This document shows positions 1-41,664 of a stretch of 64,000 nucleotides of DNA, in pieces. The notes under the pieces are model-generated. The model searched no databases and had not been told where the DNA came from. It saw only the letters and a program-made list of their open reading frames with translations. Origin of the DNA: a virus (lineage: Duplodnaviria > Caudoviricetes). Each line of letters starts with the position of its first letter. Positions within the stretch are counted from its first letter, which is position 1. The stretch is from positions 1,163 to 65,162 of the IMG/VR virus record IMGVR_UViG_3300020046_002068. The stretch is one strand, 5' to 3'. A program made the position numbers and the translations under genes.

Positions 1-176
1 CGAATACCTGTAAACCTTACTAGATCGCGTTTGCCGTGTGCCTCCTATGTTGGAAATTAGCTACGCATCCCGCCCCAGCATGTGATATCGTGAACACTTC
101 GTGTCTGTGATCTCCGAGCGTTCTTTTTTAGCCCTCTCCCTAGCTACATTCCGATTCTTCCCCCCAAGGAAATCTT

Positions 177-2120: not shown

Positions 2121-3022
2121 CGTCTACCGTTTCGGTGCGATATTGATGCTCATGGACGGCAAAATCTACAATGGCAAAGTCCTGATGTTCACTGGACAAC
2201 CTACCATGGACATGCATGAGCGGTACAAGTACGCGGAGACAAGGCAATGAACGTATATCCAAGGGGCGTGGTCCTCGAAAAGTGGGGTAACTACTGGAGG
2301 TACTCCATGTTTACTATGTACTTCAACCCTAGGTTCCCCGAGTCGTGCACTGTGCTGACTAGATACGTGAGGTTCTGATGAGTCTGCACCTTGACTACCT
2401 GATTAACTACACCCCGTTCTACATCATCGAGTTCACGCTCAATGCAAACGTGCCGAGGTTCGGTGCGAATCGGTACAAGTACGCGGGGGCAAGCGATGAT
2501 TGACGTGTATTCTAATGGTATAACGTTATGCAGGACGAACGAGCTTTCCTACGCTATCCCATGCATCAGATTGGTGACTCAGAAGGTGCCCGCACCGCTG
2601 GTTAGGTACGGGTTTCTCCCACATGGGGCGATGCTATGAGACTGTACGGACTAGGACTTGTGATCGATGGGATAGTAGTGCCGAACTACCCACACCCGTA
2701 CCCTGTTACCTACATAATGCTAAGTCAGAAGGATGGGGTGGAAGCACCGACGCGGTACGCATACCTACCAGCGGGATGGGATAAATGACTCTATACTCTT
2801 GCTTCCTCACGATGCCCGGTGTGCGGGTGTCCATGATGCAATTCACCGTTGACGTGGCTGACCTCGCGGTCAGCAGGTATCAGTTCTTACAATGGGGGGC
2901 CAAGCATGTACATGTATACCCACGGCGTGCAGTTTAGAGTGGCTCCGTACCAAGTTAAGGTAGTCATGATCATCAACTGCGATGGCTATTGGAGAGTCAC
3001 GGAGAAGTACGGTCTAGTATGA
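2113..3022 (+). other. RY-microgene block I (7 tandem ORFs, 38-50 aa)
   Basis: Hand translation: 2113-2250 (ERYKY), 2247-2378 (TRYVR), 2378-2503 (NRYKY), 2496-2639 (VRYGF), 2636-2788 (TRYAY), 2785-2937 (SRYQF), 2906-3022 (EKYGL); ATGA, TGATG or short start-stop overlaps. Confidence 0.8.
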
Positions 3023-3055
3023 ACTTCCACACTCAAGGAAGTATAGATAGGGGGG

Positions 3056-3084
3056 TTGACAAGGGGGCTTGACTAGGGTATAAT
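3056..3084 (+). promoter_or_regulatory. Perfect consensus sigma70 promoter
   Basis: TTGACA (3056-3061), 17-bp spacer, TATAAT (3079-3084); predicted TSS about 3091. Confidence 0.92.
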
Positions 3085-3090
3085 GTGTAC

Positions 3091-3615
3091 TGTGGCTGGA
3101 TATAGCATCCAGTCGCAGCAGCACCGGGCTAACATCCACCGTCGGATGTTAAGTAAGCAGTAAGGCCCCTCTTTCACAACCTGATCGCAAATGCCAGCGG
3201 CCAAGACAATCGCTGCTGGTGCAGGCAAGATGCTCACGTCCCGCGAACGAAACTGGCGGCACGGTAGGTAGTCCCCCACTCCACCCCGGTGCGAGACGGA
3301 CGCCCCAAAGTTACAACATGACCGTGCCAACGGCCCCTGTGGTGGGCCAATACCGGCGACAAGTAGTACGAACCTCTGAGATCCCCTGCGACCTAGGACG
3401 CACGACGTATGCATGTACTCCACATGCGTGCCGAACCTCGATGACCCTCCCATAGCGTGGATGCGAACCGAGGCAAGGCACAGCGTTAACAAAGTCAGGC
3501 ACCGACATCCCGAGCGAGGGCAGGGATAGTCCAGATAATGCCCGTGTTCCCCTAGGTCCTACATATAGAGTGATTTGGTCGTCACTCTCATGTGCATTAG
3601 TACGTACTAGTGTGC
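3091..3615 (+). ncRNA. Candidate long structured ncRNA or leader RNA
   Basis: ~600-bp gap in otherwise contiguous coding DNA, directly behind the promoter. Stems: 3091-3101/3107-3117, 3194-3200/3213-3219, 3258-3265/3321-3328, 3332-3336/3344-3348, 3390-3397/3551-3558, 3411-3416/3422-3427, 3436-3440/3469-3473, 3507-3511/3523-3527, 3567-3573/3582-3588. Confidence 0.55.
3129..3152. promoter_or_regulatory. 24-bp palindromic element, copy 1 (operator-like)
   Basis: CTAACATCC-ACCGTC-GGATGTTAA. Confidence 0.6.
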
Positions 3616-3641
3616 ATGTATCTTGACGACTGGAGAAAGAC

Positions 3642-5066
3642 ATGAAGATCATGATCCCCGGCGAATTCAGTTACTTCGGCGTGCGGATAGTGTACGGTCA
3701 GTATCTCTGCGCTATGTACAACTGCGCGGCTGACAGCCACAAGTGGGTGCGGCGCTACCACATAGGAGTGTAACGTGGAGTTCTACGAAGGATCGTACTT
3801 CACAGTGGTCTTGGGTGTAGGCCCCGGCCCTAGACGGTACCTCGCTGCCACGCATCGGTTCGGCGACACGTCTGATCGGCGGATGTTCTTTCAACGCTAC
3901 AACCTAGCAGGGTGGTGACATGTGGTTCAAGATGGAGTATTACCTAGTGCTGGTCGGCCCGGATGAGTTCGAAGTCATGGCGCTGTCCGTCAACTGCATG
4001 ACCGACGACCGAGAGGCGTTCTTCAACCGCTACAAACTGTGGAGGTAACGTGCTGATCAAAGGCACCGTGTTCTTCGGGGTCAACCCAGACACCCGAGGA
4101 TCGGATCATTCGATACAAACGATCTGGATAATCAAGCCCATGAACCGGGGTACTTTTTCAGGTAAAACGACGGCGTTTTTCTGGAGGTACCACATCAACC
4201 TGTATGACGTGCTGAGATAGGAGTCAACACCGGATGACCATAGCAGATAGCCCCCGCCAATACTTCGGGCTGTACTTCAACAGTCGCTGGCAATGCTTTG
4301 CTGTCATCACAGATAATGTGGTGGATCAGAGAATGTGGGCCAAGCGATACAATCTTTCAACCTAACATCCGACGGTGGAGGTTAGCCCCATGGAACTAGA
4401 CACACTGTGGATGCGAGTTCAGATACATGACGAAACCCACTGGCCGTGCATGATCCGCTCCACTCGGCTCGACAATTGGCTGCGGTGGAGGTACGCGCTA
4501 TGAACCTGAGCATAGGATTGCTGGCGCTTGGGTACCACCCTGACGGCTACACCCTCATGACCTGTACCAGTTTCTCGGACAAGTGGTTAGCTAGGAGGTA
4601 CTTCCCATGAACCTAAGAGGTACCATCGTCTACTCTCACGAGGGGTTCAACCAGCACTCGTGGAACAGGTTCCCGCAGTACACCATCATCCGGATGCATT
4701 GGTATAAGAACCTAATGGCCCGAGACAAGACGCAGTTCCTTGCCTTCGTCCGGGAGAGGTACTTCAAATGATAATCACTGGGCCGTACTACGTAATACTT
4801 GTACTACTACGCAAAGGAGAGCCAGCAAAACACATCAACCTAATGCACAAGAGTATCATCGACGAGCGGATCATACTTCGCTACGGATTCCCGTCCGACC
4901 CCGGAGCGTACTAATCATGCGGATACTCGGACCGTGGTACTTGGGTGTGTGGATGCCATACACAGCGATGTACGTTACACTGGACCCAAACCACAAGAAC
5001 GAACAGTTCTTTCATTTACGGTACAACATTTCAACAGATCGCAAGATCTACTTTGGAGATTCATGA
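3642..5066 (+). other. RY-microgene block II (10 ORFs, 36-56 aa)
   Basis: 3642-3773 WVRRYH, 3775-3918 FFQRYN, 3920-4048 FFNRYK, 4050-4220 FFWRYH, 4234-4365 WAKRYN, 4390-4503 WLRWRYA, 4500-4610 WLARRYF, 4607-4771 FVRERYF, 4768-4914 IILRYG, 4917-5066 FFHLRYN; SD before most starts. Confidence 0.85.
4362..4385. promoter_or_regulatory. 24-bp palindromic element, copy 2
   Basis: CTAACATCC-GACGGT-GGAGGTTAG; contains the GGAGG SD of microgene 4390. Confidence 0.6.
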
Positions 5067-8464: not shown

Positions 8465-8968
8465 TCCGGCAGTACCGGTACGGGGTGCATGTGGGAAGCA
8501 GAGTTGTGACCTTCATGCAACCCCCGCTGTCTGCGAAGTACGACTACAGGCATGTCATGGATCTGTTCGAACGGAGGTACGGACTATGAGGGGGCCTAAC
8601 GTGATGACACTCCACGTCTGGGGGACGTGGGTAGATTCCGAACGGTACGTGCACGTTGTACCCCGAGCCGCTGCTACCGTCCGGTGGTACTTGACTGCGC
8701 GGTACAACCACATACAGGTGAACCTTGGAACTTGATGGATGGGAAGCATACTGGTATGCTGGAAGTAAGTGGCCTAAGTGTGTGGCTGTACTCAAGTTCC
8801 GGCACGCTGGGTTCCTGCTGTATAAACGCTATGGAGTTCGTGAGGACCCTACATATGCGGCTTGACAACTGGGGCGCAATCGTATCGCCAATGTGTGTTG
8901 TCGATGCACTTCAATACGTCGGGCACAACTTGTTTCGTGATAGATATAAACTTGCGCGTCACTTCTAA
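8434..8968 (+). other. RY-microgene block V (4 ORFs)
   Basis: ~8434-8589 LFERRYG (start uncertain), 8586-8735 YLTARYN, 8725-8865 LLYKRYG (TTG start), 8855-8968 LFRDRYK. Confidence 0.75.
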
Positions 8969-8982
8969 CATCCGCCTTTCGC

Positions 8983-9006
8983 CTAACATCCGACGTCGGA
9001 TGTTAG
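8983..9006. promoter_or_regulatory. 24-bp palindromic element, copy 4 (perfect palindrome)
   Basis: CTAACATCCGACGTCGGATGTTAG; extra half-site CTAACATCCG at 8965 and hairpin GATGCCAAC-ATCCT-GTTGGCATC just downstream. Confidence 0.65.
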
Positions 9007-9062
9007 TCAATGATGCCAACATCCTGTTGGCATCGCTTGGATGTTAACTTCAGGAGTATCAA

Positions 9063-23146: not shown

Positions 23147-24576
23147 TCCGCATCAACTGGGCAGACCCTATCACGAAAGGCTTGAAGTCCCTCATTGCGT
23201 GGGACGGGCGGGATTACGTCGCCAACAAGCCAGCCGTGTGGTCGGGCACTGCAACCGGTACCGATGCTGGACCGAGGGGAGTGGGGCGGCAGTTCGCTGG
23301 GTCAGGAGATCAGTCGTCAGTAACAACCACCGGGTGGGCCACAGCCGGAACGATGCTGGTTGTGCTGAACAAGGTAGGCAGCACGGGTACTGGCTATGGC
23401 GTTGCGGGCAATCGGAACGGGGGACTGACCGGCGGTGGGATCATGCTTGCCGGACTGGGAACTGGACAGTGGGGTTACATCGACGGTACTACGGAGAAGC
23501 CTAGCGGGCAAACTTTAGCGGCTAGCGACTCTCCGGTTCTGGCTGTATCGGTTGTGCCAAGTGCCGTGTACATGTACTACAACGGGGTAGAAGTATATGC
23601 CGATACGATAGCTAACCAAGCCAACGGCGTGTTCTGCATAGGCGCTGTGGGGGTAGGTTACGGCGGTAGTGGTGTTAGCGCCAACGTTGTATACGGGGCG
23701 TACTGGGACCGCAGGCTGACGGTACGGGAGCAAGCGCGCATTGCGAAGAACACATGGTGTCTGTTCGAACCTGAGTTGGTGTTCCTCCCGGCTAGTAATT
23801 ACAGTGCTAGTACCAGTACTACGTTAACTGTAACAGCGGGTGCCCTGACGATCACCGGGCAGAGCATTACGTTCAACCGCACGCTGGTGGCTACGAACGG
23901 GGCACTGACCCTGGCGGGCCAAGCGATCACGTTCAACCGCACGATGCCGGTCACGAACGGCGCGCTGACGGTAGCAGGGCAGACAATCACCATGCCTCGC
24001 ACGGTGGTGGTAGGTAACGGGGATGTCACCCTCACGGGTCAGTCCATCAGCCTGCTGCAAGGTACCTCGCTGTCGGTAACGGCGGGTGCTCTGACGATCA
24101 CCGGGCAAGACATCACCTTCGCCCACACCATGCCGGTCACAACCGGTGCGGTGACGATCACCGGGCAGACGATCACCCTGACAGCGGGTGGGTCGGTCTC
24201 GGTGGCACTGGACGCAGGCGCACTGACGATCACCGGGCAGTCCATCGGGATGGCCATCTCGCAGACGGTTACGTCCGGGGCATTGGCACTGAACGGCCAG
24301 AGCATCGTATTGTCACGCACCATGCCGGTGACGGCGGGTGCTTTGACTATCACTGGTCAGAGTATTACTCTAACTGTAGCTGGAAGCGTTACCCTATCTG
24401 TTACGGCTGGGGCGTTGACAATTACAGGGCAAGACATTACAATGACTAACTCGGGGGGTGACGTTTATTTCCGTCGTGTGCCCGCCGCTGCAGCTACTTC
24501 GTTCGTAGAGATCAGCCAGTCTACTGGCAACTTCACTGAGATCGTACCTAAACCTGCCGGATCTGTTGACCCATAA
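23143..24576 (+). CDS. LamG-like domain plus ten GALTITGQ repeats (fibre-like)
   Basis: N-terminal lectin-like module, then 10 repeats of ~19-23 aa (about 23830-24440). Confidence 0.7.
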   Translation: MIRINWADPITKGLKSLIAWDGRDYVANKPAVWSGTATGTDAGPRGVGRQFAGSGDQSSVTTTGWATAGTMLVVLNKVGSTGTGYGVAGNRNGGLTGGGIMLAGLGTGQWGYIDGTTEKPSGQTLAASDSPVLAVSVVPSAVYMYYNGVEVYADTIANQANGVFCIGAVGVGYGGSGVSANVVYGAYWDRRLTVREQARIAKNTWCLFEPELVFLPASNYSASTSTTLTVTAGALTITGQSITFNRTLVATNGALTLAGQAITFNRTMPVTNGALTVAGQTITMPRTVVVGNGDVTLTGQSISLLQGTSLSVTAGALTITGQDITFAHTMPVTTGAVTITGQTITLTAGGSVSVALDAGALTITGQSIGMAISQTVTSGALALNGQSIVLSRTMPVTAGALTITGQSITLTVAGSVTLSVTAGALTITGQDITMTNSGGDVYFRRVPAAAATSFVEISQSTGNFTEIVPKPAGSVDP

Positions 24577-34192: not shown

Positions 34193-34493
34193 GTCCGACG
34201 AACCGGAGACGATGCGCCTGGAACCCGACGGGCGCAAAATCCGGATGGTCTGTAACGGTTACACCTATGAGTTCAACCCGGATGCGATGGACCCGGGGGT
34301 GACCTTCTTCATCCCTACCATCCACTACAACGATCTTGCTATGGCCCTGGATGAGTACATCATCTACAGGGAAGAGAAGTCTACTATCGAGTTGATAGCC
34401 ACAGCATGCCTAACCCCGAAAGGCTACGGGGTTAGGGTCATCGTTATTCCAGCGTCCGCACGAGAATCCTTGCCTCCGAGGCGCGGGTATTGA
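34164..34493 (+). CDS. Hypothetical protein, ~109 aa
   Basis: Overlaps the previous ORF; convergent with the giant gene. Confidence 0.6.
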   Translation: MTRRRPRRDESDEPETMRLEPDGRKIRMVCNGYTYEFNPDAMDPGVTFFIPTIHYNDLAMALDEYIIYREEKSTIELIATACLTPKGYGVRVIVIPASARESLPPRRGY

Positions 34494-37400
34494 TCGCACG
34501 GGTGAACTCGTCGCGCAGGTTGGACTTCTCGTCTGCGCCGATCTCGGGGTCAGCCAGCATCTTGCGCTGTTCTTTGCGCAGCTTGACGATCTCTCCGTTG
34601 ATACCGTCGAGTAGTTTCTTGCCTTCGATGATTGCCTTATGCTCGTCGAAGTACTCGCTCGCTGCGTCCTTATCCTTAGTCTGCAGATCCTTCCACGTCT
34701 TGGCGGCACGGTCTGCCTGCTGCTTCAGTTCGTAGAAGATCGCCTGCTGGTTGCCCTTCACGTCACTGGCAAACATGCTGGACAGACCCGCCATGCGGGT
34801 GGCCGGACGTGAGGGGGCTTGGTTGTCGCCGCCCCAGACCGCATCGACCATCGCCGATGACATCTGCAGGCCGAACATCGCCGCATTGCCCAGCACGCCA
34901 CGGACCATGTGTTCCACCTTGACGGGGGACTGGGTCCACTCGGGGGCACCGGGCACGTGGCTGAACAGCGAGCCAATCATCTTCGCCACTTCGGTGGTGT
35001 CAGCGGTGTACTGCTCTTTCGGATCGAGCCCTTGCAGGCGCATCGGCACAATGGGCGCTCCACTGTGCAAGCTCTTCCCAGCGGCCAGTTCCACCCACGG
35101 CTTGATCAACTGCGGCCCGCCTTCACCGGGCATGATGCCCCACAGCGGGTTGTAGTTGTCCATCAGCGAGCCGCCAATCCCCCGCCACGCGTCGTCCTTG
35201 CCCATCATCCACCGCACCATGCGCTCGACCGGGATCTTGAACAGCAGCGCGGCTTCCGGCGCAATCGGCATGCGCAGACCTTCGTGCTCACTGATCGGGA
35301 TGATCAAGTTCATGTCCCGACTGGACGGGGACTCGGCGTTGTAGATCTCGTCATCATCCATCAGCATGGCGTACACGCCGATCAGCAAAGCTGTATACGC
35401 TCCACGCCGCCAGAACATCTGCTTCACCGCTTGACGTTGCTCAACCGGGATGGTGCTGGCGTTGCCCCGGATCATGAGACTGAGTACGTGCAAGCCTTTG
35501 ATGTTGGCCTGGATAAACGGGGCCATCGATGCAATGGTACGCACAATGGGCCAGCGGCCACGCTGGCTAAACGGGGCCATACCGTACGCACGGTACATGG
35601 CTTCTTCCCGGCTAGCGCCCTGCGCTTCAAGCTGCTTGACCAAGTTTTCTTTATTGGCCATATCCGTGTCGATGTAGACCGCGTCCATCATCTTACGGAA
35701 CAGCTTGGTACTGGTACCCGCCAGTAATCCAAACCGGGAACGCACGCTGTCCATCTCGTGCATATCACCGATGTAGTTGTATCCCCCTGCCAGACCAGCG
35801 GATTTCAATGCCTTGTTGACATCGCTATAATTACCCTGCCCGCCCGCCAGTTGCTTGGCATGCTGGCCCCAATTCTTGGCCGCATTGCCGTACACCCGCA
35901 TCATGGTCTTGACGATGCCGGACTGGTCGCCCGAGAAGTAGTACGCCTGCGAAGAGTTCCGCGCCAAGTCGCGCACAGCGAAGTCAGGCATGCGCACGAT
36001 GCCCGCCCGCAGCAGGGCGGAGGTCTTCTGGAACAGGGTCATCAGCGGGCCGAGTTCCTGGGTCGTGCTGCCGATAGCCAGCGCATCTTCCCGGTCGAAA
36101 AACCGGACCCCCCGCTCACTACCATCTTCCTCGTAGAACTTCACATCGTAGTTCTTGCTGCCCTCACCGCTGATGTGCGGCTTCTTGACCCATGCAGCTA
36201 GGCCCAGCGAATAGGCTTGCTTGCCGATGGCGCGGGCGGCGTTCGACTTGATAGCCGCTGCAGTCATGAACATAGACTGGTCCATCATCCCAGTCAGCAC
36301 GTCCTTGAGGGGTTCCTTTCCGCCAATCAGGGTCCGGACCACGTTCATCGGGGAGTTCAGTCCAGCCACCGAGCTATTGGCATCATCCAGCATGGACTCG
36401 TTGAACACCCGAAGGAACGGTACGTAGTAGGTAGCGTCCTTCCACTCCTGCGCCTTGACCTGTGGGATCTTCCCGGCTTCGACCATCGCATCAATCTGCC
36501 CGTTCAGGTGGGCGCGCATGATGTTGTAGGTCTCAGCAATCCAGGGGTTCTCGTTCCAGATCTTGTCGCCCAGTGCCTGCTCTTCGGCAGGGATACCGAG
36601 GTTGCGCACCCGGGCATTGGCCTCGATGTCGTTAGACATGACGGCTGCAGCGCGCTTGCCTTTCAGGGCAGCGTTGAGCATCCCTACCGCACGGGTGATG
36701 GGCATATCCGCTGCTTTGGCCGCAGCCGACAGACTGTCCATGACCTGAATATAGTTCGGCCCGGGGTTGTCCGTGTCCACGATGGGACGCCCGACCTCAT
36801 TGAACTTCAGCGGGCCGTACTCCAGCACGCCTTGGGCCAGGGTGGGGATGGTCGAGTCCGCGTAGTCAGCCAGTGCGATGCCGCTCAGCTTGCCCGATTC
36901 ACCGATGATGGGGTTGCCCAGCGCATCGAACTTGGCGCGCAAGCGGGCCTTGTTGTCGGCGATGTCGACCTCAGCCAGCGATGGCAGCTTGGTTTCAACG
37001 ACCGTACCGTCTCGTTTTTTGAGCTTAACGGTATTGCCCAGGATCGTATCTAGGAAGTTAGCTGACATCTTCCGCAACCCGGACTCCGGGCTGGGTGTTT
37101 CCCGCTTGATCAGTTCCTCTTCGGTCAGCGGTGCTTTGGCCGGACCCTCGACAGCGGCGCGCTCAGGTGCTTCGGCGTACACATTCCCACTCGGAGTGTC
37201 AGCCGCGAAGTCCGGGGTACCCAGGATGCGCTCGATGGCGGCATCGGTCTGCTTGAGCACGCTGTTCTTGCTGGGACCTTGCGGGATGCCCAGGATGCGT
37301 TGCACCAAGTACACGAGCCGATCCCACAGCGACCGGAAGCTGGGGCCGGGTGACGGGATGGCCTTCAGCTTGGTGACGAACGCCTCGTTCGACCACGTCT

Positions 37401-40400
37401 CCGAGACAAACTCGCTCAGGTCGGTGAGCGCATAGTCATCCGCCTTCTTGCCGAGCATACCTTTGACGTAGGTATACATCTGCTCCAGTTCATTGACCGC
37501 TTTGATCTGGTCCTGTGTGACGGTGCCCTTAGCCGTACCTTTGACGATCCGAATGACCCGTTCCGTAGCCGCGTGCGTACCCTCATGCAGCACCAGATGT
37601 TCGGTGACATGTTCGGGATCCAGCGTGATCTGGTCCAAGTCCGGGTTGTACGCGCCTACCTTCTCGCTATCGTACTTGTTGCCGTATGCGTTGTACAGCC
37701 CGACTGCCTTGTTAGCGTAGGCTTCTTCCTCCACACGCTTGATCGTACGCTTGCGTACAGTTGCGTCAGCGCCGGGGTTATAGATTACAACAGCGCGATT
37801 GCCAAGATGCGAGTCGAAGTGAGTACCGCCAAGCACGCCCTTCTGCCACAATGCTTTGGACGCTAGTGCTTTGGCGTCTTCAGATCCTTTAGGTTCGTAC
37901 CAATCTCGCAGCGCGTCAATATTAGCGTCCATACCGCGAGTCCCATCGTTAGCTAGCTTAACCGCTAATACATGGTAGAGAACTCCGGATGACTGCGACG
38001 AATTTTCTAGTGCGCTACGGATACTACCTTGTGCGCTGATAATGCGATTAGCTTCTGGTGTAAACGTGAAGTGCCCGTAGTTGTCATAGGTCTTAATAAC
38101 ACCAAGATCCTCAAACGCCTTCGTCACCTTGTATGCTTGGTTCATCTTATAGACGACCGCATCCCTGAACTGCGGGGCGCGTTCAACCGGGTTGTCCCAG
38201 ACCAGCAGGCTGCTAGGATCAGCCTTGAACTCTAAAAGCAGTTTGTTATACGACTCTTCGTCGAACTCTTTGCTATACGCTCCACGTATCCTCGAACGCA
38301 AGCGCTCTTTCGCCATGTCCGTTTTCGTTTTCTTCGTCGCCATATCAGCGATGCCTTGTATCACGCTGTTGATACTCTGCATAGCTTCGTATATTTTATC
38401 TAGCTCAACTCCAAATATAGCTGCGTCTAGCGAAGAAACAGCCAGTTCCAAGCTGTTGTCTAACTCATCTTTTTGAGCAAGTAGGTCGCGCACCGACCGC
38501 CTAAGAGTGCCTTGCCCCAAAGCCGGTATATCTATTACTGCTCCTGCGTCCATGTTTAGCTGCACAACATTCTGATACAGCCTATGAGTCTCCCTCGAAG
38601 CGTCGTCAAATAGCTTCATCTTGTCGAGTAACGCTACGTACTCGTCGCTAGTACGCTCTCCAGTTTCATCTCTTATGGCCATAGCGTCGTTACGCAGTCC
38701 CCCTCTAACATTACTCAGTGCGCTTCTGAGTTGCTTTGTAGGGCCAAACGATATATTTTCATCGATCATTGGGTCTAGAAACGACCGTAAGGCTAGTGCA
38801 TCAAACTCCGTGCTAACGTCTGGTAGACTGTCCAACAGTTCTTTTGTGCTGAACGGGGTAGGAGCGCCTGCGGTGCTCCGGTACCTTCTAGCTCTGGTAG
38901 CAGCGGTCCCATAGTCATCGCCTGATAGTCCAGTCTTGAATCTACCTTTGTTGGATACCGTACCGAACGATGTGTAGAATCCAGCATCATAGTATTGATC
39001 GCCCAGTCCACCACGCATCTTCATCTCATCACGATCAGTGATGGTGGTAAACGGATTGCTAGGCAAGCCAACCGTCTTGTTCTTGGTGTAGTGGGTAAGC
39101 TGGAACACCTTTTTCTTGTCGTTCCACATGAACTTACCGGGGCCAATCACATCCCCCAGCATCACCTTGGCTTTCATGCCAATGGCTTTGAGCCGTGCCG
39201 CAATGGTACGGTTACGTTCGTTGGGGCTATTGGCAGCGATAGTGTCCAGCAGGGCGTTCACATCCCCGGTCTGCGCCGCTTCAAGCAACGCCGGGTCAGA
39301 CTCCCCCATGGGACCAGCAAAGTAGCTGTTAGCGTCGGGGTCTTGCCCAGTGTATTCGTTATGATCTTTGGCAATCTCGTCAACGTCGATCTGCGATAGC
39401 CCCTTATATCCAGGGGTCTCTGGATCGGCGAAAGCGTCGAATGTTTCCTTCGCTTTGGGGTGCAGATCTACATACGCAGGGGCGCCAGTCGGGCGGTTCT
39501 CGTCATAGAAGTCACGGGCTGCTTGGATAACAGGATCCACCGTCTTTCGAGCACGGCTTTTCTTGAACGGGGCGGGAGGCGTGACAACAGGCGCGACAGG
39601 CGGCGCACTGGGTAGCTCAGCAGGTGCTTGGGGTTGCTCCGCCACTGGGACGGGAGCGGGTTCGACAGGTGTTTCACGTGGAACATCCTGGGTTGCGGTG
39701 GGCTCAGGCGGGGCGGTCGGGGTCTCGATCTCCTGCTGCAGCGACTGGCGGTCGGTGTCAGCCTCGGGATCGTAGCCGAACTTATCCATCAGGTTTTGCA
39801 GGTACCTGGGAACACCTCCACTATCGATGCTATTGACGAACGCCGAATACAGGGCATCCTTGATAGCTTCGACATCTGCATTGGGGTCTTTGCCCAGCAG
39901 CAGTTCACGCAGTGCGCGTTGTTTATTGGTGTTGCCCGACAGGCCAGCTTTCTTCAGATCCTGGGGCGTGATCACCACAACTTCGGGCGCAACGACACCC
40001 TGCTCGGCGGGCGTTTCCGGCACCGGGGCAGCGACGGGGGCAGGTGCAACCACCTGCGCGGCGGGTACCTGCGGGACGATGTTGGGGCCATGCACGGGCA
40101 TGGCGATGTCCACCAGATTGGGGAACCGCTTCATGCCCGCTTCATCGGCCGCACTTTGGGCCTTGCGGGTAGTAGCGGCGGCTACCGCTTCTTGCTTGCG
40201 CTTTGCGCGGTTGGCTTCATCGAACTGGCTCACCCGGTTCGCTTCGTTTACCGCAGCGGCTTCGGAGAACAGACCAAGCTGGCCATCCGCCTCTTCCGCC
40301 GGGAAGTGTGCGTTGTAGGATGCTCGGTTCTCCGCTTCGGTACCGGTCGTGAGCCTGTTAAACATGGGCTCACTGCCCTGCATAGGGGTAGCTACGGTAT

Positions 40401-41664
40401 TGGAACGGGGGAGTTCCGGAGCGACAAAACTCTCTTCGTCCGGGGCGCGCATGTACTCGCGCAGTTGCTTGGGCACCTTGTTCTTAGGTGCAGGCATGTA
40501 ATCGGAAGGCAGGGAATATTGACCGTTGTCATCGACTTCCCCGATCTGCGCCTTAATCGCGGCTTCCTCGGCCAACAGCGGGGCCAACCGCTTGGCTTCC
40601 TCAGCCTTGCGTGCCGCTTCTGCCGCTGCCTTCTCCCGCTCGCCACGGTACCCGGAGTACGCTCCACCCACGGCACCCATACCCGCACCGCCAATCAGAC
40701 CCTGCACCCCTGCGGTACCGGCACCTTCGTACAGCCCACGGCTCGGGTCGATCCCCTGGATCATGGCGTTGCTAGCGACCTTGCCGCCGAACTCCTCGCC
40801 GAACTCGCCACCACTTTCTTTCGCGGCGACCGCTCCCGCTGTCTTCAGAACACCCTTCGCCCCTGCTTTGCCGAAGACTGCGCGTTCAAGTGCTCCACCA
40901 ATGGGGGTCCTGCCCAACACAGCGGATATCCCACCAGCAATACCCCCTGCCTTACGGGCAGCAGACAACGCAATGGCTTCGGCCGCCTCAGCCTCCGACT
41001 TTCCACTAGCAACCAACTCCCTAAACTCGGGCATAGCTCGGAACAGCCCGGGGCTCTGAGCCCAGATCTGTCTAGCTTCCGCAAGGGTGTCACCGCCAAC
41101 ATCACCCCCCTGCATCACAGCATTGGTACCCACTGCCGTGCCCACCGCCACCCGACCCGCCGCCTTGGCCCCCAACTGGAGACCTTTCGAAGCAGCGCCC
41201 GCCGCGCCACCGGTCAACAGGCTGATGATGATCTGCGGTGCGTTCGACGCCAGCACCCCCAGTGCCGCGTGGGGGTTCGTTGCATACTGCTTGATAGCCT
41301 CAGTGACCTCTGACCCCAGCCCTTCCTTCTCTGCTACGGTCAATGCTTGTTGGATACGCATGCGCTCCAACTGCGTGGCAGCGGACTGTTCGCCCCGTGT
41401 TGCCTTACCCTGTTGCTCGAACCAATCACCCACCCGATTGGACCCGAGCCCAACCAGTTCCGGGATGTCTTTGGTGACGATCTTCCCAACATCGTACGCA
41501 CCAGCAACAAGATCCTTGCCTAAGTCTTTCGCCGATGACCGGCGCAGTTTCTTCTCGAAGGCAGGGATCTTCGCTGCGATGTTGGCGTAGGCAGTGTTCG
41601 GCGGGACATCATCCGGGATATCACTGACCAGCGTACCGTCAGGTAGCTTGAGGGTGTACGGCAC
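34444..41664 (-). CDS. Large polyvalent protein, 2406 aa (internal virion/ejected, DarB-like class)
   Basis: Gly/Ala-rich N-terminus, HEGTH zincin (MPTase-like), ART-like segment, C-terminal LPD38-like region; last gene of the morphogenesis operon. Confidence 0.8.
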   Translation of the reverse strand: MPYTLKLPDGTLVSDIPDDVPPNTAYANIAAKIPAFEKKLRRSSAKDLGKDLVAGAYDVGKIVTKDIPELVGLGSNRVGDWFEQQGKATRGEQSAATQLERMRIQQALTVAEKEGLGSEVTEAIKQYATNPHAALGVLASNAPQIIISLLTGGAAGAASKGLQLGAKAAGRVAVGTAVGTNAVMQGGDVGGDTLAEARQIWAQSPGLFRAMPEFRELVASGKSEAEAAEAIALSAARKAGGIAGGISAVLGRTPIGGALERAVFGKAGAKGVLKTAGAVAAKESGGEFGEEFGGKVASNAMIQGIDPSRGLYEGAGTAGVQGLIGGAGMGAVGGAYSGYRGEREKAAAEAARKAEEAKRLAPLLAEEAAIKAQIGEVDDNGQYSLPSDYMPAPKNKVPKQLREYMRAPDEESFVAPELPRSNTVATPMQGSEPMFNRLTTGTEAENRASYNAHFPAEEADGQLGLFSEAAAVNEANRVSQFDEANRAKRKQEAVAAATTRKAQSAADEAGMKRFPNLVDIAMPVHGPNIVPQVPAAQVVAPAPVAAPVPETPAEQGVVAPEVVVITPQDLKKAGLSGNTNKQRALRELLLGKDPNADVEAIKDALYSAFVNSIDSGGVPRYLQNLMDKFGYDPEADTDRQSLQQEIETPTAPPEPTATQDVPRETPVEPAPVPVAEQPQAPAELPSAPPVAPVVTPPAPFKKSRARKTVDPVIQAARDFYDENRPTGAPAYVDLHPKAKETFDAFADPETPGYKGLSQIDVDEIAKDHNEYTGQDPDANSYFAGPMGESDPALLEAAQTGDVNALLDTIAANSPNERNRTIAARLKAIGMKAKVMLGDVIGPGKFMWNDKKKVFQLTHYTKNKTVGLPSNPFTTITDRDEMKMRGGLGDQYYDAGFYTSFGTVSNKGRFKTGLSGDDYGTAATRARRYRSTAGAPTPFSTKELLDSLPDVSTEFDALALRSFLDPMIDENISFGPTKQLRSALSNVRGGLRNDAMAIRDETGERTSDEYVALLDKMKLFDDASRETHRLYQNVVQLNMDAGAVIDIPALGQGTLRRSVRDLLAQKDELDNSLELAVSSLDAAIFGVELDKIYEAMQSINSVIQGIADMATKKTKTDMAKERLRSRIRGAYSKEFDEESYNKLLLEFKADPSSLLVWDNPVERAPQFRDAVVYKMNQAYKVTKAFEDLGVIKTYDNYGHFTFTPEANRIISAQGSIRSALENSSQSSGVLYHVLAVKLANDGTRGMDANIDALRDWYEPKGSEDAKALASKALWQKGVLGGTHFDSHLGNRAVVIYNPGADATVRKRTIKRVEEEAYANKAVGLYNAYGNKYDSEKVGAYNPDLDQITLDPEHVTEHLVLHEGTHAATERVIRIVKGTAKGTVTQDQIKAVNELEQMYTYVKGMLGKKADDYALTDLSEFVSETWSNEAFVTKLKAIPSPGPSFRSLWDRLVYLVQRILGIPQGPSKNSVLKQTDAAIERILGTPDFAADTPSGNVYAEAPERAAVEGPAKAPLTEEELIKRETPSPESGLRKMSANFLDTILGNTVKLKKRDGTVVETKLPSLAEVDIADNKARLRAKFDALGNPIIGESGKLSGIALADYADSTIPTLAQGVLEYGPLKFNEVGRPIVDTDNPGPNYIQVMDSLSAAAKAADMPITRAVGMLNAALKGKRAAAVMSNDIEANARVRNLGIPAEEQALGDKIWNENPWIAETYNIMRAHLNGQIDAMVEAGKIPQVKAQEWKDATYYVPFLRVFNESMLDDANSSVAGLNSPMNVVRTLIGGKEPLKDVLTGMMDQSMFMTAAAIKSNAARAIGKQAYSLGLAAWVKKPHISGEGSKNYDVKFYEEDGSERGVRFFDREDALAIGSTTQELGPLMTLFQKTSALLRAGIVRMPDFAVRDLARNSSQAYYFSGDQSGIVKTMMRVYGNAAKNWGQHAKQLAGGQGNYSDVNKALKSAGLAGGYNYIGDMHEMDSVRSRFGLLAGTSTKLFRKMMDAVYIDTDMANKENLVKQLEAQGASREEAMYRAYGMAPFSQRGRWPIVRTIASMAPFIQANIKGLHVLSLMIRGNASTIPVEQRQAVKQMFWRRGAYTALLIGVYAMLMDDDEIYNAESPSSRDMNLIIPISEHEGLRMPIAPEAALLFKIPVERMVRWMMGKDDAWRGIGGSLMDNYNPLWGIMPGEGGPQLIKPWVELAAGKSLHSGAPIVPMRLQGLDPKEQYTADTTEVAKMIGSLFSHVPGAPEWTQSPVKVEHMVRGVLGNAAMFGLQMSSAMVDAVWGGDNQAPSRPATRMAGLSSMFASDVKGNQQAIFYELKQQADRAAKTWKDLQTKDKDAASEYFDEHKAIIEGKKLLDGINGEIVKLRKEQRKMLADPEIGADEKSNLRDEFTRAINTRASEARILVRTLE

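Follow-up and report, generated by a model that had tools for sequence, protein, structure and literature searches.

We examined a coding-free gap in the early region of a tailed phage genome (Duplodnaviria; Caudoviricetes; IMG/VR record IMGVR_UViG_3300020046_002068) and found that it opens with a perfect sigma70 promoter followed by a boxA-like motif, a build that it has in common with an uncatalogued family of non-coding elements in related phages. The gap probably harbors a Nus-factor antitermination leader resembling those of rrn operons and phage T7, which would head an untranslated RNA of ~0.53 kb leading into an operon of very small genes (microgenes) and would make the element a divergent member of that family. 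The stretch of DNA analyzed (64,000 nucleotides; referred to hereafter as the window) corresponds to bases 1163-65162 of the 65,162-bp record, which is rated complete by CheckV. Window positions are used throughout, and statements made about the whole genome cover the 65-kb record.

Promoter, boxA-like motif and dyad of the coding-free gap

The gap is headed by a consensus sigma70 promoter on the + strand (3056-3084) consisting of TTGACA at 3056-3061, a 17-nt spacer and TATAAT at 3079-3084, which is the sole 12/12 site in the first 20 kb and also in the whole 65-kb genome. Transcription from this promoter is predicted to start at ~3090-3092 (~3091), where an 11-bp stem-loop including two G-U pairs begins (3091-3117, + strand). 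The initial annotation of this DNA had placed a perfect promoter and its +1 at the start of a hairpin, and its description was borne out as far as sequence goes. Equally accurate was its placing of the next gene led by a Shine-Dalgarno (SD) sequence at 3642, in that a GGAG motif (3632-3635) precedes the ATG of the first downstream microgene (SD and start codon, 3632-3644, + strand). The leader from promoter to first SD-led microgene is thus 550 nt long. Microgenes are found on both sides of the gap and fill the interval between the gap and a MoxR-like ATPase gene located 4.2 kb downstream.

Coding signal was absent from the gap in all six frames (-0.17 to -0.67 bits per codon, versus +0.43 for the ATPase gene), and comparison of its six-frame translations by tblastn, both with the relatives and with the genome of the phage itself, brought up no similarity. 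An open reading frame (ORF) of 78 residues at 3219-3455, whose possible conservation and translation had been raised in the initial annotation, displayed flat GC by codon position with no skew at third positions, and yielded no real homologue among 1.8 billion representative proteins; the one marginal match (E 8.8e-4) was made of five separate stretches. While the microgenes on both flanks might suggest that the gap is what is left of microgenes, or of one larger gene, after decay, the lack of coding signal, of third-position skew and of any similarity to own or related genes makes this explanation hardly credible. The gap had further been described as the only large coding-free one of the early region, which is nearly right: on the + strand of 1-34000, no stretches lacking a positive coding frame are longer than 3166-3615 and a second one, 16-345, at the left edge of the window. 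Sequence upstream of the window start also looks gene-free by eye. No tRNA or tmRNA was found in the gap, and a check against Rfam that covered ROOL, GOLLD, OLE, group I/II introns, RNase P, tmRNA and 6S returned no match at gathering score anywhere in the window, nor any at E<=10 within 2900-3800, in agreement with the earlier failure to recognize hallmarks of tRNA, tmRNA, RNase P or introns there.

The boxA-like motif, CCCCUCUUUCACAAC (3166-3180, + strand; core 3168-3179), is located at +78 from the predicted start. Written CCTCTTTCACAA or CCUCUUUCACAA, it differs from boxA at two positions; it lies on the transcribed strand and is followed by ~460 nt devoid of coding signal. CCCCUCUUUCACAAC is the only match to GCTCTTTAACAA with two or fewer mismatches on either strand of the window (128 kb). 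Since 2.26 such matches are expected by chance per 128 kb, the probability of one falling by chance at +50 to +100 is ~1e-3. We read the motif as a putative Nus-factor site of the rrn, lambda nut and T7 type, for which NusB-NusE binding and resistance to Rho are predicted. A motif beside boxA was also considered as an IHF site, a reading that was dropped as the motif is not conserved.

Between promoter and boxA-like motif, at +40 to +61, lies a 22-bp dyad, TAACATCC-N6-GGATGTTA (3130-3151). Five copies of it occur in the early region, four of them in the window (3130, 4363, 6682 and 8984; 0.24 matches to the pattern expected) and one upstream of it, at record bases 598-619. The copies are located at intergenic junctions with their centre in either orientation, A/C variation is independent between the two arms, two of the five copies are mismatched, and none of the other copies has a boxA alongside. 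The copy at 8984 is palindromic through its centre and has extra half-sites around it (~8960-9045, before the vWA gene), and in two copies an SD-like GGAGG right in front of a start codon is contributed by a variant arm, GGAGGTTA. A scan with the dyad pattern retrieved a single, unrelated contig; the related phages described below carry perfect dyads of their own at the same place, and have them a second time where the element ends or ahead of the ATPase gene. Symmetry running to a centre of 0-1 nt favors a DNA site over an RNA hairpin, and the dyad more likely represents an operator for a dimeric phage protein.

The initial annotation had portrayed the gap as a stem-rich RNA, a view that, for the gap as a whole, is not sustained by local z-scores or by comparison with the genomic background, both of which indicated that only its two ends fold better than chance. 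On the + strand, the 5′ hairpin at 3091-3117 has a folding energy of -15.1 kcal/mol (z -4.96), compared to -7.6 kcal/mol on the - strand, where it is weaker because of the G-U pairs. The other end is occupied by a bipartite terminal stem (3574-3634, + strand) of 24 bp in all, comprising an outer part (3574-3584/3624-3634) and an inner 13-bp hairpin (3589-3618). The whole stem has an energy of -28.9 kcal/mol (z -3.83) and its 3′ strand covers the GGA of the microgene SD; the inner hairpin reaches -15.1 kcal/mol on the + strand versus -6.5 kcal/mol (z 0.08) for the - strand. A search for a U-tract terminator closing the gap came out negative. In scans of 100-nt segments, the lowest z-scores were accordingly found near the ends (-3.4 for the segment starting at 3075, -2.2 and -2.5 for those starting at 3550 and 3575), with a mean of +0.17 over the gap. 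Folded as a whole, the gap has a minimum free energy (MFE) of -196.5 kcal/mol, better than that of shuffled sequences (z -2.72; -0.64 for the - strand), as had been anticipated, but when compared to the genome's own 551-nt segments with adjustment for composition, its residual of -14.8 kcal/mol (z -1.85) placed it only in the top 4.5%. Likewise, the long-range 8-mer pairs reported earlier, GGCACGGT/ACCGTGCC and GACCTAGG/CCTAGGTC, do exist, but exact 8-nt inverted repeats occur at chance frequency (six per 900 nt, with about six expected by our estimate). Separately, TCCAGTCG (3108-3115), which belongs to the 3′ arm of the hairpin at +1, is a perfect complement of CGACTGGA (3627-3634) at the microgene SD, and this could reflect a long-range alternative pairing or chance. 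The untranslated interior (3152-3560, + strand) is C-rich and T-poor (32.5% C, 15.6% T), with a C/G ratio of at least 1 in each 78-nt segment sampled from 3100 to 3440, a composition such as would be expected of a rut-like Rho loading region.

In the mechanism that we propose, host sigma70 RNA polymerase would initiate at ~3091 and synthesize an untranslated RNA of ~0.53 kb, the first 90 nt of which would act as an antitermination leader of the rrn/T7 type. The stem-loop at +1 probably protects the 5′ end or stabilizes the RNA, while the dyad at +40 would be the operator bound by a regulator of the phage. As the RNA emerges, its boxA would recruit NusB-S10 along with NusA, NusG and SuhB, and the Nus-loaded polymerase would resist Rho across the C-rich, unstructured and untranslated interior. 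Because no terminator closes the element, transcription probably runs on into the microgene operon, at the entrance of which the 24-bp bipartite stem, half-covering the SD, may serve for processing or for control of translation. The analysis points to the probable site at which host RNA polymerase enters the microgene region, together with three candidate controls in the form of the dyad as operator, boxA and the SD-masking stem.

Promoter-plus-boxA elements in related phages

An alignment of homologues of the ATPase led to 575 related IMG/VR stretches (<=42% identity), from which 80 loci were kept. Most of the 80 carry a perfect or 11/12 TTGACA-17-TATAAT promoter on the coding strand, and such promoters are a hallmark of the clade. 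In the majority of relatives (L006-L085, e.g. L009:9882 and L018:9896), this promoter is situated ~100 nt before the ATPase gene and the short leader behind it contains TAACAG-type palindromes, an arrangement from which the window differs in having its sole perfect promoter 4.2 kb upstream of that gene. Sixty unique consensus promoters, that of the window included, fell into two groups according to the length of their leaders: 55 had leaders of 19-166 nt, and five, among which the window with its 550 nt, had leaders of 473-695 nt. The long leaders share conserved blocks, some of them finish in a long hairpin plus U-run before the next gene, and they carry an invariant YCGYTCWTTAACAA ~60-90 nt after the start. 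This sequence is that of the Escherichia coli rrn boxA, UGCUCUUUA, extended by the adjoining spacer, ACAAU (PMC2724277), and agrees with the boxA consensus of gamma-proteobacteria, GYTCTTTAANA (PMC5725501). Several matches to boxA with two or fewer mismatches in coding regions of the relatives were set aside as chance occurrences.

Scanning IMG/VR for a perfect promoter followed, 60-90 nt further, by YTCTTTAACAA returned 44 stretches, whereas about one was expected by chance according to our estimate. Of these, about 30 have the appearance of true elements, most of them with a leader of 385-696 nt, and all of those loci that reach far enough carry homologues of the ATPase, vWA or p292 genes on the same strand, thereby assigning the contigs to the same clade. 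Several contigs of this clade are ~60-67 kb in size. The build of the relatives' elements consists of a perfect sigma70 promoter, a stem-loop that begins between +1 and +6, a dyad particular to each phage, an exact boxA of the rrn type (GYTCTTTAACAA) at about +60 and 0.4-0.7 kb of non-coding sequence, the whole lying 2-6 kb (in the broader definition of the family, 1-6 kb) ahead of the ATPase/vWA/p292 module. In the 32 elements kept for build statistics, which include a few near-duplicates, boxA was found at a median of +61 (range, +14 to +96); the first base pair fell at or before +6 in 26 elements, and 26 had at least two hairpins before boxA. These elements, which gave no match in Rfam, constitute an uncatalogued non-coding family of 0.4-0.7 kb present in at least ~30 IMG/VR contigs. 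Its members include L069:727-1271, L073:7594-8135, L066:4488-5011, L089:3107-3538 (- strand), L071:234-675, L075:189-720, L076:3812-4262, L053:5096- and L095-L134.

Two subfamilies were distinguished. Subfamily A is characterized by the core GCCGAU.GUUCGGGUG and shows compensatory changes in 29 of 107 predicted pairs in an alignment of four sequences. In subfamily B, boxA is followed by AAAUGC, a hairpin, GUGCNNNG-UAGGCGUAGG, a variable insert and GAGCAGUAYC-CNNNGCG. A helix of this subfamily is paired in 95% of alignment cells, as opposed to 34-49% when the partners were slid relative to each other; seven of its 13 pairs change on both sides, and its covariation score of 0.554 was reached by none of 500 shuffled controls (0.212). 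A crude scan detected a hairpin plus U-tract within or at the end of the element in nine of 29 family members, and whether the element is a free RNA or a leader may differ between members. Dependence of antitermination on boxA is textbook knowledge for rRNA operons and lambdoid phages; the occurrence of this family in at least ~30 contigs suggests that lytic phages routinely borrow the host's mode of rRNA transcription for long untranslated RNAs of their own.

Fit of the window to the family and competing readings

The gap in the window fits the family build in having a 12/12 promoter, a first base pair at +1, a dyad at +40, two hairpins and a boxA-like motif at +78, and its 550 nt of coding-strand leader without an SD-led ORF agree with the relatives' elements in both length and position. 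Further resemblance was found downstream of the boxA-like motif, where AAAUGC, a 9-bp hairpin (3193-3220) and GUGCAGG succeed one another (3189-3225, + strand) in the arrangement of subfamily B. As in that subfamily's register, AAAUGC comes eight nt past the motif, its C opens the 9-bp hairpin, and the closing G is followed by UGCAGG; the hairpin is part of the MFE structure. A candidate 3′ strand for a junction helix with UGCAGG (3220-3225) is CCUGCG at 3385-3390 (+ strand), the GCAGG/CCUGC pairing being present in the MFE structure of the gap and the equivalent helix covarying in the relatives; CCUGUG at 3336 could serve as an alternative partner. A descriptor of subfamily B matched members of that subfamily only among the related loci and matched the window once, at 3189-3225; the parts of it that are independent of boxA were satisfied at 180 of 127,400 anchor positions. 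R1, a covariance model built on the 5′ core of subfamily B from eight relatives with the window left out, found its best match on both strands of the window at 3165-3226; the match is weak (12.4 bits, with a rough E of 0.23), and the next best scored 6.6 bits. That so many features should agree in position with those of the family by chance is improbable, and membership of the window in the promoter-plus-boxA family appears likely.

A number of points weigh against a Nus-dependent leader of this family in the window. The score of the window with R1 is below that of every true member outside the training set (13.7-61.6 bits), and blastn, nhmmer and a profile hidden Markov model detected no sequence similarity between the gap and the relatives, the 80 loci included. 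The strongest motifs of subfamily B, UAGGCGUAGG and GAGCAGUAYC, are absent from the window or only vaguely present, and part of the motif comparisons were chosen after the window had been seen. No close relatives were found among cultured phages or in single-protein scans of IMG/VR and metagenomes. At the level of boxA, CCTCTTTCACA matches GYTCTTTAANA at nine of 11 positions, both mismatches falling at specified positions of a consensus that is gamma-proteobacterial and may not fit the host of this phage. In lambda, the boxA5 mutation, by which N activity is lowered, alters the same G as is changed in the window motif (PMC2724277). Across the interior, z-scores of 100-nt segments range from ~0 to +2.6, indicative of no structure above chance. 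Finally, transcription from ~3091 is something that we infer, as we do Nus binding, Rho resistance, processing and a function of the RNA body. With regard to the two substitutions in the motif, the G-to-C change is common to L098, L102 and L105, whose boxA is otherwise perfect, while the A-to-C change was seen in the window alone; behind a perfect promoter, the window's boxA variant occurred in no further IMG/VR contig.

Some of these points would be accommodated by a plain, long 5′ untranslated region or regulatory spacer, in which the strong promoter and the operator dyad control the microgene operon, the features resembling boxA and subfamily B are coincidental, and the interior is functionless. 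An interior that is unstructured above chance and has no homologues, a degenerate boxA, an R1 match that is not significant alone and a dyad that behaves as a DNA operator are all in keeping with this explanation. We nonetheless consider it unlikely, given that the joint occurrence of the promoter, the +1 hairpin, the dyad, the boxA-like motif at +78 and the AAAUGC-hairpin-GUGC succession is improbable by chance, that a C-rich untranslated leader of 0.55 kb would, if unprotected, be exposed to Rho, and that the gap matches the relatives' elements in length and position.

The gap may alternatively encode a discrete, functional large non-coding RNA (a decoy, scaffold or anti-defense RNA) that is freed by processing at the 24-bp stem and relies on boxA for its synthesis only. 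Conserved blocks and covarying helices in the relatives' elements, some of which are closed by a hairpin and U-tract ahead of the following gene, argue for such an RNA, as does the RNA-strand specificity of the 5′ and 3′ hairpins of the window. On the other hand, the window has no terminator, terminator-like ends are confined to less than a third of the family members scanned, the interior is not structured above chance, and the RNA has no known partner or target. On balance, we regard this explanation as rather unlikely in the form just given. The suggestion of a new large phage non-coding RNA, made in the initial annotation, thus met with a divided outcome: the structured interior that it implied was not found, while the gap fits the build of a promoter-driven 0.4-0.7-kb family in which two helices covary. 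An RNA product gains indirect support in this way, since the uncatalogued family occupies the same position in related phages. A broader version, somewhat easier to entertain but still short of an even chance, is that the whole clade of uncultured phages makes a boxA-protected untranslated RNA of ~0.5 kb that acts in its own right, for instance as a decoy, scaffold or primer; rapid evolution would have left nothing but the build of this RNA recognizable, and the window would represent a highly diverged third subtype fused to the microgene operon.

A role as primer brings up the possibility of a transcription-primed replication origin comparable to ColE1 RNA II or the T7 primary origin. That every clade member has the element upstream of its genes for ATPase, vWA, DNA polymerase and primase, and that the RNA measures ~0.5 kb, would suit an origin, but neither an AT-rich unwinding element nor iterons were found in the gap, the RNA is C-rich rather than G-rich, and boxA is typical of stable or untranslated RNAs and not of known primer RNAs. 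GC skew was uninformative on this question. Overall, an origin at this site seems very improbable, and an antitermination leader that reads into the microgene operon remains the explanation that we favor.

Known systems and genome setting

The closest system in print to the proposed leader is the early control region of T7, followed by the rrn leader and the lambda nut sites. The T7 early region, with E. coli promoters A1-A3, boxA, the RNase III site R0.3 and gene 0.3, has an untranslated leader and a long stem before its first small gene. T7 carries an exact GCTCTTTAACAA at nt 813-824, corresponding to +64 from promoter A3, and both T7 and the window have strong host sigma70 promoters heading the early genes of a lytic phage. 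The two differ in that the window has a single promoter; in that the T7 leader, counted from A3, is ~175 nt long and contains no large RNA body, compared to 0.55 kb in the window; and in that the boxA of the window is degenerate and separated from the promoter by a phage-specific dyad.

The E. coli rrn antiterminator is composed of a boxB hairpin, boxA and boxC, and is bound by the rrnTAC complex of NusA, NusB, NusE, NusG and SuhB. Similar to the window with its boxA-like motif, the rrn leader presents a hairpin and then boxA downstream of a strong promoter on an untranslated transcript, and it is as an untranslated RNA that the rrn transcript needs protection from Rho (PMC2724277, PMC5725501). 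The relatives' boxA plus spacer matches that of rrn exactly, while the window motif has two mismatches; moreover, the window has no rRNA downstream, and what stands as the 'hairpin' upstream of its boxA belongs to a dispersed dyad, which is probably recognized in its DNA form.

Lambda nut sites consist of boxA (CGCUCUUA), a spacer and boxB, and act with the N protein. In both lambda and the window, a phage-specific hairpin stands beside boxA downstream of an early promoter, but in the window the hairpin precedes boxA, which is the reverse order, and no N-like protein was identified. In our own alignment, CCCUCUUUCACA of the window matched the boxA plus spacer of lambda nutR, CGCUCUUACACA, as printed in PMC2724277, at 10 of 12 positions.

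The initial annotation had also proposed a cis-acting antiterminator leader similar to HK022 put. The kind of element is supported, albeit with a degenerate boxA of the rrn, lambda nut and T7 type that has two mismatches; its type is not. HK022 put and the window have in common a cis-acting RNA (predicted, in the present case) just past an early promoter with two stem-loops, which in the window fill the first 61 nt of the transcript and which, in a put-like RNA, would bind RNA polymerase and confer resistance to terminators without host factors. However, put works without boxA or Nus factors whereas the window carries a boxA-like motif, the signal conserved across the clade is a Nus-factor-dependent boxA, the second stem-loop belongs to a dispersed dyad whose variable orientation and independent arms denote a DNA site, and Rfam yielded no match. 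Antitermination of the put type is thus not supported, and we give it next to no credence.

With respect to the remainder of the genome, the genes for DNA polymerase A, primase/helicase, helicase, the MoxR-like ATPase and a vWA/metallopeptidase are on the + strand, and those for the portal and a 2406-aa virion protein on the - strand. The ATPase is only ~23% identical to the ATPases of N4-like phages, and blastn found no DNA-level relative of the window among cultured phages. The 2406-aa protein (34444-41664, - strand) matches the N4 virion RNA polymerase family in its N-terminal part only (profile positions 187-584 of 3406). As no polymerase domain was detected in it, its identity as a virion RNA polymerase is doubtful.

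Adjoining the gap is an ORF of 647 residues (177-2120, + strand) for which no homologue was found in Pfam, PHROGs, cultured phages or an index of 5.8 billion proteins. It is preceded by a second gene-free stretch of ~780 nt, spanning record bases ~560-1162 and window positions 1-176, that contains a hairpin plus T-run terminator, a copy of the dyad, a C-rich part and an AT-rich tract (TATATATAAATAACTTTTTTACTAACTAACTAAC). Finally, an 11/12 promoter, TTGACA-17-TACAAT, is located at 24415-24443 (+ strand), the gene for DNA polymerase A (24576) following ~130 nt further on.

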